Shown in pieces: positions 32,899-34,753 of a DNA stretch of 64,000 nt. Positions within the stretch are counted from its first letter, which is position 1. Every line of letters begins with the position of its first letter. Made by a program: the position numbers and the translations under genes. The stretch comes from Candidatus Doudnabacteria bacterium (GTDB lineage Bacteria; Patescibacteriota; Doudnabacteria; UBA920; O2-02-FULL-48-8). A model generated the notes under the pieces. That model had not been told where the DNA came from. It saw only the letters and a program-made list of their open reading frames with translations, and searched no databases. The DNA is taken from assembly GCA_016182875.1 (NCBI GenBank), contig JACPFQ010000004.1, positions 259,515-323,514 of the forward strand, given 5' to 3'.

Positions 32899-33354
32899 AT
32901 GAGCAAAGCCAAATTTGTAGTGTTTAGCCTGGCTTTCATGCTGGTGTTCGGCATGTGGGGGCATGCCTCTGCGGCCGTCGTGATTATGCCGGGGGACCTT
33001 GTCAAAACACAAAACAGTTCAGTGGTCTTCTACATGGACGATGCCAAACAAAATCTACCGCTGGATGCTTCTGGGTTTGCCATCAGATATGGAAGCGACT
33101 TCAGTAAAATAAAAATTGTGGCTGAGTCTGACATTAAACCTTACACCGGGCACAATTTTTTGAACCGGATGCTGTCGGTGCCGGAAGGAAGCCTGATAAT
33201 GTATTATCCGGACCCAACTGTGTATCTGGTCAAGAATGGCATGAAGCAGCCGTTCACCTCCTGGCAGGCGTTTACCAGCAGGGGATATAAGTCGTCTGAC
33301 ATCAAGCTTGTCGGCACGTATCACGTTTACGCCACCGGCCCAAATTTGAACTAA
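32899..33354 (+). CDS. Secreted protein with two CPR-type surface repeats
   Basis: Signal peptide; G.L[VI]......V[FY].......K.PF....F...GY repeat shared with the larger surface proteins. Confidence 0.7.
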   Translation: MSKAKFVVFSLAFMLVFGMWGHASAAVVIMPGDLVKTQNSSVVFYMDDAKQNLPLDASGFAIRYGSDFSKIKIVAESDIKPYTGHNFLNRMLSVPEGSLIMYYPDPTVYLVKNGMKQPFTSWQAFTSRGYKSSDIKLVGTYHVYATGPNLN

Positions 33355-33523
33355 GTAAAAAACCGCCGGCAACCCGGCGGTTTAAGTTTGTCTAATTTTT
33401 GGTGTAATTACGCTATTTGTTAGACACAAGGCATTCGGTACCTAAAATAGCCATGGCTAATATAGGTACCAGTCGTGTTGTTTTGCCTTCTAATCATATT
33501 ATTAATTCTCTAGCAAATTTTAC

Positions 33524-33819
33524 TGGTCGGGGTGCTGGGAATTGCCGCCTCACTTCGTGAGGCGAGCCACGCCCATCTTCGATGGGCGGGAACCCGTCTA
33601 TCCCGCACCAAAAGCTTCGCTTTGGTATGGGGCATGCCTGCTCTTCAGCCTGAAATTTTTGGTCGGGGAGCCGGGAATCGAACCCGGTCTATCTGCTCCC
33701 AAAGCAGACGTACTACCGGTATACTACTCCCCGGAAAAATTTCAGGCTGCCTACCAGGCGTATTTACCCCGTAGTGAACCGAAGGTTCTACTACGGGGCT
33801 ACCGGTATACGACACCCCG
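33524..33819 (-). pseudogene. tRNA-Pro-like gene with multiple insertions, enclosing an intact tRNA-Pro
   Basis: 5' CGGGGTGTCGTATACCGGTAG..TACG and 3' TAGAC.GGGTTC..AATTCCCAGCACCCCGACCA align to the inner tRNA; the acceptor stem CGGGGTG/CACCCCG is intact. Confidence 0.75.
33660..33733 (-). tRNA. tRNA-Pro(UGG)
   Basis: CGGGGAG...TCTGC-TTTGGGA-GCAGA...GGTTCGATTCC...CTCCCCG-ACCA cloverleaf. Confidence 0.96.
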
Positions 33820-33897
33820 CCTTCGCTAAAGCTTCGGCGGGCAAGCCCGTTAGATGTCACAAAAGCCTACGCAATATTATATGTTATACTGGCACTT

Positions 33898-34500
33898 ATG
33901 AAAAGAGTTTGGGAATTTTATAGAGACCTGCTTTGGCAGAATAGGGGAGTGCTGCGGAAGGTGATAATTTTATTTCTCGTATCAATTGCCGCGGGAGCGG
34001 TGCTTTTTTTCTATGACCAAACACTGCTTGATAAAATTGTTGCTATGTTCGAAGAAAAATTCGGAGCGGATAGAGCGCTTGACCTAAGTTTGGCCATAGA
34101 TATTTTCAGGCAAAATCTTATAGCCTCGCTTATAGCGCTAATCGGCGGAGTCATTTTGGGTATTACTCCGGTACTGCTGGTGGGCCTCAACGGACTCCTT
34201 TTGGGCTATGTAGTGACTTCGATATTTGTTTTGATGCCGGGAAGTATAATGGATAGCCTTACTTTTGCATCTAAAGGACTTCTGCCCCATGCGATATTTG
34301 AGGTTCCAGAATTTCTGATTGTTTCCGCGTTCGGTTTAGTACTCGGTACGCGCTGGCTTAAGAGAGAATCAGCTGGGAAGCGAAAACAGGTTTTGAAAGA
34401 AGATTTTATAAAGGCGTTAAAAATTGTGCCGTTAGCTATTATTTTGCTTATAGCGGCAGCCTTGGCAGAAGTTTTTGTTTCGGGAAATTTAATAAAATAA
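33898..34500 (+). CDS. SpoIIM / DUF95 family membrane protein
   Basis: IF..N, NG.LLG, LPH.IFE.P, AA..E. Confidence 0.85.
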   Translation: MKRVWEFYRDLLWQNRGVLRKVIILFLVSIAAGAVLFFYDQTLLDKIVAMFEEKFGADRALDLSLAIDIFRQNLIASLIALIGGVILGITPVLLVGLNGLLLGYVVTSIFVLMPGSIMDSLTFASKGLLPHAIFEVPEFLIVSAFGLVLGTRWLKRESAGKRKQVLKEDFIKALKIVPLAIILLIAAALAEVFVSGNLIK

Positions 34501-34562: not shown

Positions 34563-34670
34563 TGGAGCGGGATGCGGGAATCGCCCGGTCATTCGATCCG
34601 GTCATGCGACCGGACTGCTTGACCCCGTCGAATGACGGGGCCGGGCGTCAGGTCGGATGACCTGACGAAC
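34563..34670 (-). pseudogene. 3' fragment of a tRNA-Gly with a multi-hairpin insertion in the T-loop
   Basis: Minus strand GTTCG[insert]CGATTCCCGCATCCCGCTCCA. Confidence 0.6.
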
Positions 34671-34679
34671 AGCACTTCT

Positions 34680-34753
34680 TGGAGCGAGCAGGGGGAATCG
34701 AACCCCCGGCATCAGGTTGGAAACCTGAGGTATTGCCACTATACGATACTCGC
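34680..34753 (-). tRNA. tRNA-Gly(UCC)
   Basis: GCGAGTA...TCAGG-TTTCCAA-CCTGA...GGTTCGATTCC...TGCTCGC-TCCA. Confidence 0.96.

Follow-up and report, generated by a model that had tools for sequence, protein, structure and literature searches.

A tRNA-Pro(UGG) gene nested in the anticodon region of another in Doudnabacteria, and a putative tRNA-overwriting cassette behind it

Introduction

Why does one proline transfer RNA (tRNA) gene of an ultra-small Candidatus Doudnabacteria bacterium lie inside the remains of another, and which of the two is a tRNA at all? The nest in question spans positions 33524-33819 of a window of 64,000 nucleotides (nt), the whole stretch of DNA analysed here, which corresponds to G000:C9:259515-323514 in the source genome G000 (789 kb in 14 contigs); coordinates without a contig name are those of the window. 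The answer that we favour, with a probability of roughly 0.6, is that a resident tRNA-Pro(UGG) gene was split at its anticodon by a segment with a different, complete tRNA-Pro(UGG), and that this segment, which has no nuclease gene, is probably a copy of a selfish tRNA-overwriting cassette.

Results

One callable tRNA inside a second tRNA-Pro gene

Within 33524-33819 a single tRNA gene was called, a tRNA-Pro(UGG) with an encoded CCA at 33660-33733 on the minus strand, found by ARAGORN and by the Rfam tRNA model (62.8 bits). Neither program called a second tRNA in this interval, and Rfam, at both gathering and E-value thresholds, gave the inner tRNA alone for the nest. That this intact gene lies within a second tRNA-Pro gene, as an earlier note on the stretch had claimed, was confirmed by the two outer ends (33799-33819 and 33524-33543), which are identical to both ends of G000's own tRNA-Pro(CGG) and to the ends of uninterrupted tRNA-Pro(UGG) orthologues in sister genera.

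Read along the minus strand, on which all parts of the composite lie, the outer gene starts with 21 nt of resident type comprising the 5' strand of the acceptor stem, the 5' strand of the D-stem and the D-loop (33799-33819). After the D-loop sequence ...TAG, a 32-nt hairpin plus TAAA is inserted (33763-33798), which is common to the related genome G013, and then follow the 3' strand of the outer D-stem, G26 and the 5' strand of the outer anticodon stem (TACG + CCTGG, 33754-33762, from our reading of the sequence). Next come a 4-nt linker with the left 15-nt arm of an inverted repeat (33735-33753), the inner tRNA, and the right 15-nt arm followed by AAGAG and by CAGGC, the 3' strand of the outer anticodon stem (33636-33660). 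Between this strand and the outer variable loop lies a hairpin of 32 nt (33601-33632) that has stems of 9 and 5 bp, a loop of GAA and a bulged T; the variable loop and the 5' strand of the T-stem (33590-33600) lack 1 nt that G013 and functional orthologues have. The outer T-loop is interrupted (TTC^AATT) by a 46-nt double hairpin with two 8-bp stems and GAA loops (33544-33589), not found in G013, and the outer 3' end closes the composite with 20 nt that hold the remaining T-loop, the 3' strands of the T-stem and acceptor stem, A73 and CCA (33524-33543). The three hairpin insertions thus lie close to where the earlier note had placed them.

The inverted repeat that brackets the inner gene, given before as 14 bp, measured 15 perfect pairs (33735-33749 with 33646-33660), the final base being A76 of the inner CCA, and it extends to 25-nt arms with 84% complementarity. 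For the 35-nt flanks the duplex energy came to -32.3 kcal/mol, compared with -12.6 +/- 3.2 kcal/mol in shuffles.

The whole composite is framed by a promoter-like site upstream of the outer 5' end and a terminator downstream of the outer 3' end. The former (TTTTCA-17 nt-TATAAT, 33876-33904, minus strand), about 56 nt upstream of the outer 5' end, is the sole promoter-like site on the tRNA strand, and no such site was found between the outer 5' end and the inner tRNA. The latter, a terminator-like hairpin with a T run (33357-33383, minus strand), is the predicted end of a transcription unit containing the entire composite.

The nest is not a product of misassembly, which can be excluded for practical purposes. 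Contigs assembled per run in Logan from four groundwater runs of one study, which may include the sample behind the G000 assembly, tile 33300-34000 with zero mismatches, and in all four runs contig pieces bridge both the junction between the outer 3' part and the inner gene and that between the inner gene and the outer 5' part, with at least 30 nt on each side. The same kind of nest is found in two other assemblies from different genera (G013 and G007), and five metagenome contigs carry the G013 or the G007 form of it. Both the per-run contigs and the comparison with relatives that the earlier note had recommended therefore speak for a real structure; other relatives have clean sites.

The outer gene is a relic

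Could the outer gene still be a tRNA, given that the earlier note held the outer cloverleaf to be still foldable? When the outer halves are joined, no 7-nt anticodon loop is obtained in G000, G013 or G007, and in G000 the 1-nt deletion reduces the T-stem to 3 pairs. In the minimum free energy (MFE) fold of the G000 unit the outer acceptor stem forms and the T arm does not. With neither anticodon loop nor T arm the outer cloverleaf cannot fold fully in G000, and the outer gene is thus a relic and not a second tRNA. Nor did the proposal of a precursor processed into two tRNAs find support: there is no outer anticodon stem-loop, genes for tRNA-Pro GGG, CGG and UGG are all present, so that the genome does not otherwise lack Pro(GGG/CGG), a point that the earlier note wanted checked, and the archaeal-type splicing endonuclease (PF01974) was not found in the 94%-complete G000, in a search whose control was positive in 4 archaea. 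Only the inner gene at this locus is a tRNA.

In this family the outer allele (acceptor stem CGGGGTG/CACCCCG) is the normal one: G002, G010, G024, G015 and G011 have it uninterrupted, and G009, G008, G021 and G022 have an uninterrupted gene with 1-3 nt differences from it. Moreover, the outer 5' half abuts the same leader hairpin (33816-33842, minus strand; a dispersed repeat by repeat searches and orthologue comparison) and the same promoter context as the uninterrupted G010 orthologue, and G007 has the same leader.

G000 has the T-loop double hairpin and the T-stem deletion, G013 neither. Since the T-loop hairpins are not in this sister genome, they are later arrivals, and hairpin repeats thus kept inserting after the nest formed.

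The inner gene is a foreign allele

The inner gene fits a functional bacterial tRNA-Pro, with a canonical cloverleaf, C1-G72, A73, G35, G36 and G37, the five last-named features being ones that we take to be tRNA-Pro identity elements. It differs from the outer allele at 7 positions, including two compensatory stem pairs, so that the replacement copy is of a foreign sequence type, as expected of a homing-endonuclease cassette.

Among 146 Doudnabacteria genomes, the inner allele (up to 3 mismatches) occurs in 9 that belong to four families (four genomes in f1, one in f4, one in f6 and three in f3), and in 8 of these 9 it is identical over 71 nt. Six carriers (G000, G013, G007, G052, G093 and G069) have it inside a resident tRNA-Pro(UGG) whose sequence type is different, with the 3' side alone visible in G069 because the contig ends; it is un-nested in the other three (G023, G037 and G034).

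A GroEL tree places G000 and G013 as sisters (100/99) and G007 in another clade (83/94) together with clean-site genomes. Between G000 and G013 the nest is 97.8% identical over 232 nt, the flanking coding DNA about 72%. Across the tRNA-Pro(UGG) loci of the 13 f1 genomes that were read, there are 3 full nests, one 5' half with a GIY-YIG gene, one 3' remnant and 8 clean genes; filled and empty sites thus coexist in close relatives and are patchy on the GroEL tree, again as expected of a homing-endonuclease cassette. The shared leader and promoter context, the distribution of the alleles, the GroEL tree and the identity of the nests together point to the inner gene and its flanks as incoming, horizontally moving DNA and to the outer gene as its disrupted target. 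A pseudogene shell hence surrounds a working, horizontally acquired replacement tRNA.

Nests recur at other tRNA genes

The window locus has counterparts at tRNA genes for Pro (UGG, CGG and GGG), Gln, Arg, Leu and Val, with up to three or four layers. tRNA-Pro(CGG) nests are found in G013:C4, G010:C10 and G006:C17, the last with two layers, a tRNA-Pro(GGG) nest in G013:C8 and a further tRNA-Pro(UGG) nest in G038:C39; G008 has a tRNA-Pro(CGG) 5' half only. The deepest nests seen are L040 (G038:C25), in which three successive tRNA-Pro(CGG) 5' halves of different alleles precede one intact gene, and L044, the double nest of G006:C17, in which each layer has a covarying leader-trailer pairing of its own. 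In multi-layer nests the outer layers are more degenerate than the inner ones.

Two features recur in these nests. Inner genes are mostly bracketed by complementary arms, whose sequences vary among nests while the pairing is kept; pairing of the flanks is at least 3 standard deviations (SD) more stable than in shuffles for 7 of 12 nests, an eighth reaching 2.9 SD, and for none of 17 clean tRNA-Pro loci. In addition, a right-end motif, TGAAG(AG), joins the arm to the 3' strand of the outer anticodon stem in cassettes of different isoacceptors and families, and reads ...GGCTGAAGAG-CAGG in the window nest.

G000 itself holds a second nest, at tRNA-Leu(CAA) (C1:53930-54270), where an outer 5' half with a hairpin is followed by arms of the CCGCACC/GGTGCGG family around an intact gene; on the 3' side lie an outer part with a hairpin in the anticodon region, an element of about 135 nt and a further 3' remnant. 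The 5' half of this nest was found by eye, having been missed by our search for 20-nt half-tRNAs (up to 4 mismatches), and the nest counts are therefore lower bounds.

By ARAGORN, the 94%-complete G000 has 34 tRNA genes and no tmRNA gene, and several expected isoacceptors, such as Asn, His, Tyr and Arg-ACG/GCG, were not found; some of these may be hidden in nested or hairpin-laden genes, which escape the finders. Close to the nest, a diverged copy of a tRNA-Gly 3' end (34563-34582, minus strand; 4 mismatches in 20 nt) follows three GC-rich hairpins about 97 nt downstream of tRNA-Gly(UCC) (34680-34753), so that this neighbouring gene has a remnant too.

Small GIY-YIG nucleases adjoin split tRNA genes

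Which enzyme could have opened the target? At both the UGG and the CGG locus of G024, an outer 5' half is followed by an intact GIY-YIG open reading frame (ORF) of 79 or 84 amino acids (aa) and then by a full tRNA-Pro; the two ORFs lie at L010:1587-1826 and L042:323-577, both on the minus strand, and the Pfam matches (2e-14 and 3e-16) leave little beyond the catalytic domain. The junction of the G024 UGG cassette, after ...CTGCTT, coincides with that of the armed cassettes in G052 and G093. Several nests have such a small nuclease gene in the same position; an endonuclease ORF is present inside the nest in G024, G018, G097 and G009, and armed nests directly adjoin GIY-YIG genes in G078 and G009.

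Homologues of these nucleases occur in 113 of the 146 genomes, with up to 13 per genome. Six of the 20 best-matching loci have tRNA genes within about 600 nt, where roughly one or two would be expected by chance if a genome holds some 40 tRNA genes per 0.9 Mb, and each of the six has either remnants of half-tRNAs or complete nests (two for Gln and one each for Pro, Arg, Leu and Val). From these associations we infer that the window segment is one of a family of cassettes, the full versions of which carry a GIY-YIG nuclease gene.

G000 has one close homologue of the tRNA-Pro-associated nucleases, of 79 aa (C1:49891-50124, minus strand), 83 nt downstream of tRNA-Pro(GGG), and no tRNA remnants were found beside it. 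At another site of this genome (C10:24550-25100), a GIY-YIG ORF lies between two direct repeats of about 110 nt that contain the end of the upstream ORF and two hairpins; after them comes a hairpin-laden, tRNA-like 3' portion with an Arg(GCG)-like anticodon arm, which the Rfam tRNA model scores at 24.9 bits, below the cut-off.

Hairpin repeats serve as insertions and as arms

The hairpins of the outer gene belong to dispersed families. The leader hairpin has 12 copies in G000 (up to 4 mismatches) and many in relatives, copies 84-100% identical to the D-loop and T-loop hairpins are found in many relatives, and hairpins with GAA/TTC triloops make up 66 of 481 triloop hairpins. The hairpins, the only part of the composite to which this comparison applies, thus have several near-identical copies at separate loci, as expected of dispersed palindromic repeats of the repetitive extragenic palindromic (REP) or miniature inverted-repeat transposable element (MITE) kind. 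In five more outer tRNA halves, the position of the D-loop hairpin or one close to it is taken by a hairpin of similar layout (CCCCG...CGGGG), in most cases with TAAA after it.

The same sequences recur as arms. The pair CCCGCACC.../...GGTGCGGG forms the arms in G007, G052, G013:C4 and the tRNA-Leu(CAA) nest of G000 and is the closed hairpin at 33601-33632; the pair CCCCGTAGT.../...ACTACGGGG forms the arms in G013:C8 and is the closed hairpin at 33767-33798. A left linker, CTTG, is common to solo hairpins and cargo cassettes. The arms may be the ends of the element, or they may insulate the inner fold from the near-identical outer halves.

Three further repeats were noted. A 34-nt palindrome (GGTACC...GGTACC, 33437-33470) between the nest and the terminator is a dispersed repeat with 5 loci in G000 (up to 5 mismatches) and copies in G013 and G001; in G001, a genome of the same genus (82% complete), the homologous downstream palindrome was found with no tRNA within 1.5 kb. 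A GC-rich element of about 135 nt follows tRNA-Pro(CGG), Leu(UAG), Leu(CAA) and Gln(CUG) genes (G000 C9:82636-82770, C9:47198-47332, C1:53795-53930 and C7:19058-19199; G010 L007:1342-1479). It starts with the reverse complement of the T-loop and T-stem of the preceding tRNA, ends by repeating, with 0-4 mismatches, the 3' end of the same tRNA from the T-loop on, and has a three-way structure with compensatory changes in 15 of 39 pairs (RNAalifold); it has no Rfam match. Finally, many paired hairpins with CCCCCTCTTAGAATAAGAGGGGG and then a G-rich mirror motif are scattered over the G000 genome (for example, C10:5360/5427, C8:42833/42903 and C9:298429-298954).

Discussion

In the sequences compared here, a segment with a complete tRNA-Pro(UGG) of foreign type interrupts the resident tRNA-Pro(UGG) gene at the anticodon. 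How would such a segment arrive and persist? We propose that the GIY-YIG nuclease of full cassettes would cut intact cognate tRNA genes near the anticodon, and that repair from the filled allele would copy the cassette into the cut site (homing). The spare tRNA would keep the host viable, making insertion into an essential single-copy gene harmless, and because the new inner gene would be a target again, repeated invasions could build layered nests. The window copy would have lost its nuclease gene or never had one. The old promoter would drive a single precursor of the whole composite, ribonuclease P (RNase P) and 3' trimming would free the inner tRNA from it, and the dead outer halves would then have been colonised by dispersed hairpin repeats.

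Two of the three explanations put forward in the earlier note are compatible with this scheme. That of a tRNA-carrying mini-element targeting tRNA genes is the most favoured, given an inner allele patchily present in four families and usually nested, and nests that recur. That of a pseudogene in which palindromic elements collect agrees with the outer shell, which has no anticodon, holds hairpins from dispersed families and received those of its T-loop later.

The closest published analogues are the GIY-YIG homing endonuclease SegB of phage T4 and the mobile ORFs (mORFs) of fungal mitochondria. The mORF account describes, for Allomyces atp6 and for Glomus atp6, atp9, cox2 and nad3, a GIY-YIG or LAGLIDADG ORF that enters an essential gene together with a foreign replacement end, the native part remaining downstream as a dead duplicate from which the foreign part differs in sequence (PMC3630166). 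The mORFs resemble the cassettes in bringing in a foreign copy of the displaced gene part and leaving the native copy dead. The cassettes differ in targeting a tRNA gene, in supplying it whole, in leaving dead halves on both sides and in allowing several layers; moreover, the window copy has no endonuclease ORF, and inverted arms and hairpin repeats accompany the cassettes. SegB is a free-standing enzyme of the T4 tRNA gene cluster with a 27-bp site that includes the conserved motif of the T-psi-C stem-loop (PMC2330249), and is like the cassettes as a GIY-YIG enzyme with tRNA-gene sequence in its target. However, SegB sits between tRNA genes and splits none, and T4 has no nested half-genes. 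SegB has extra DNA-binding parts, whereas the G024 proteins, at 79-84 aa, comprise little more than a catalytic domain.

Other known arrangements fit less well. Genomic islands and prophages with tyrosine integrases carry a copy of the tRNA part that they displace, so that the gene stays intact and a partial duplicate lies at the other end; they duplicate the 3' part only, are kilobases long and encode the integrase. An island of this type with an attL/attR signature was rejected here, as the insert is about 120 nt long, holds no ORF and no integrase, and displaces both tRNA halves. Archaeal tRNA introns and split or permuted tRNA genes are like the nest in being interrupted at or near the anticodon loop between complementary flanks, but those splice at a bulge-helix-bulge (BHB) motif into a functional tRNA, whereas the outer gene here has no anticodon; given this absence and the negative splicing-endonuclease search, a spliced intron of the BHB type was rejected. 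So was a group I intron, since no Rfam intron family matched 33300-34000 at E-values up to 10. The hairpins in the outer halves, at 20-46 nt and in dispersed families common to many Doudnabacteria genomes, are like REP, MITE and Correia-type repeats, but neither recurrent insertion into loops of dead tRNA halves nor use as arms around cargo tRNAs has been described for those families. A word-based full-text search, with subscription journals largely outside its reach, returned no account of tRNA-in-tRNA nesting or of GIY-YIG cassettes splitting bacterial tRNA genes.

Among the explanations that compete with a GIY-YIG-driven cassette, the one that survives best, which we nonetheless regard as unlikely, is a hairpin-ended, transposon-like element independent of GIY-YIG nucleases. 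The arms would be its terminal repeats, moved by another enzyme or by a process specific for DNA structure, the solo 30-nt hairpins would be its MITE-like forms that carry no cargo, and the nucleases would be separate tenants of the same hot spots. Such an element would account well for arms and solo hairpins of the same sequence families with the same CTTG linker, for one arm family that carries either Pro or Leu cargo, and for the lack of an internal nuclease ORF in most armed nests. It leaves unexplained why the cargo always matches the isoacceptor of the interrupted gene, for which a sequence-blind transposon would need strong selection, and why the G024 GIY-YIG cassette occupies the exact junction of the armed cassettes of G052 and G093 while the armed nests of G078 and G009 directly adjoin GIY-YIG genes; nor is there an associated transposase.

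A local rearrangement with no mobile element, in which a duplicated tRNA-Pro was nested by a repair error and neutrally colonised by hairpins, seems improbable. Inner and outer genes are of the same allele in G006:C17 and G024:C27, as such an event would predict, and the T-loop insertion seen in G000 alone shows that hairpin repeats insert independently. In the window nest, on the other hand, inner and outer genes differ at 7 positions, two compensatory stem pairs among them, the inner allele is identical in other families, the junction and the TGAAG end motif recur across families and isoacceptors, and the distribution on the GroEL tree is patchy.

We give still less weight to the composite being a functional RNA, with the outer shell as a scaffold that processes or stabilises the inner tRNA, or with halves that form a second, split tRNA. 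A single promoter and terminator frame the unit, the G013 and G007 units, whose outer halves are perfectly conserved, are predicted to fold with one cloverleaf inside the other, and the non-tRNA parts are 98% identical between G000 and G013. Against a functional composite stand the missing outer anticodon loop in all three nests, the broken T arm of G000, the progressive decay of outer layers in multi-layer nests and the nine related genomes that manage with a plain gene; all Pro anticodons are supplied elsewhere, and no splicing endonuclease was found in this 94%-complete genome. An artefact that joined the tRNA-Pro reads of two organisms, conceivable where tRNA sequences are common to community members and unitigs break inside them, has a negligible probability in view of the mismatch-free contig pieces over each junction in four runs and of the same architecture in independent assemblies and metagenome contigs.

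Several observations weigh against the selfish-cassette explanation itself. A homing cassette would be expected to hold an endonuclease ORF in the inserted segment, and the window nest contains neither a nuclease gene nor a recognisable remnant of one, and the three ORFs that overlap it have no Pfam match; hairpin-armed nests and GIY-YIG nests may be two separate kinds of element that share a target. The arms of the window nest occur nowhere else in G000 and, among 41 relatives, in G013 only, and the window copy as such is not seen to move. In G007 and G013 the outer halves have kept every letter, as one would hardly expect of an old pseudogene; recent insertion, conversion by tRNA-Pro(CGG) or some constraint is needed to account for this. 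Furthermore, the phylogenetic argument uses a single protein tree (GroEL) with a moderately supported key node, the nests were mostly parsed by eye from sequence, and the drive mechanism of the cassette (cleavage, homing and transcription) is one that we infer by analogy.

The recurrent nests apparently represent an undescribed cassette family, a variation on the homing-element theme with a putative mechanism. More tentatively, at somewhat less than even odds, we suggest that Doudnabacteria, and probably other members of the candidate phyla radiation (CPR), harbour selfish cassettes that overwrite tRNA genes, each inserting at the anticodon with a spare gene for the same isoacceptor as cargo and, in some cassettes, a GIY-YIG nuclease of about 80 aa. 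These would leave stacks of dead halves in the manner of Russian dolls and make tRNA alleles horizontally mobile, and the abundant 30-nt hairpins would be empty cassette ends.

For annotation, just the inner gene should count as a tRNA at this locus. If the wider proposal is true, homing-type elements would have one more means of residing within an essential gene, one with no need of an intron or intein because a complete spare copy of a small gene is carried along. The proposal would also explain odd half-tRNAs, undetected or "missing" tRNAs and the clutter of hairpins in CPR annotations. tRNA alleles would become horizontally mobile, and the very common small GIY-YIG proteins would gain a testable role and a target.

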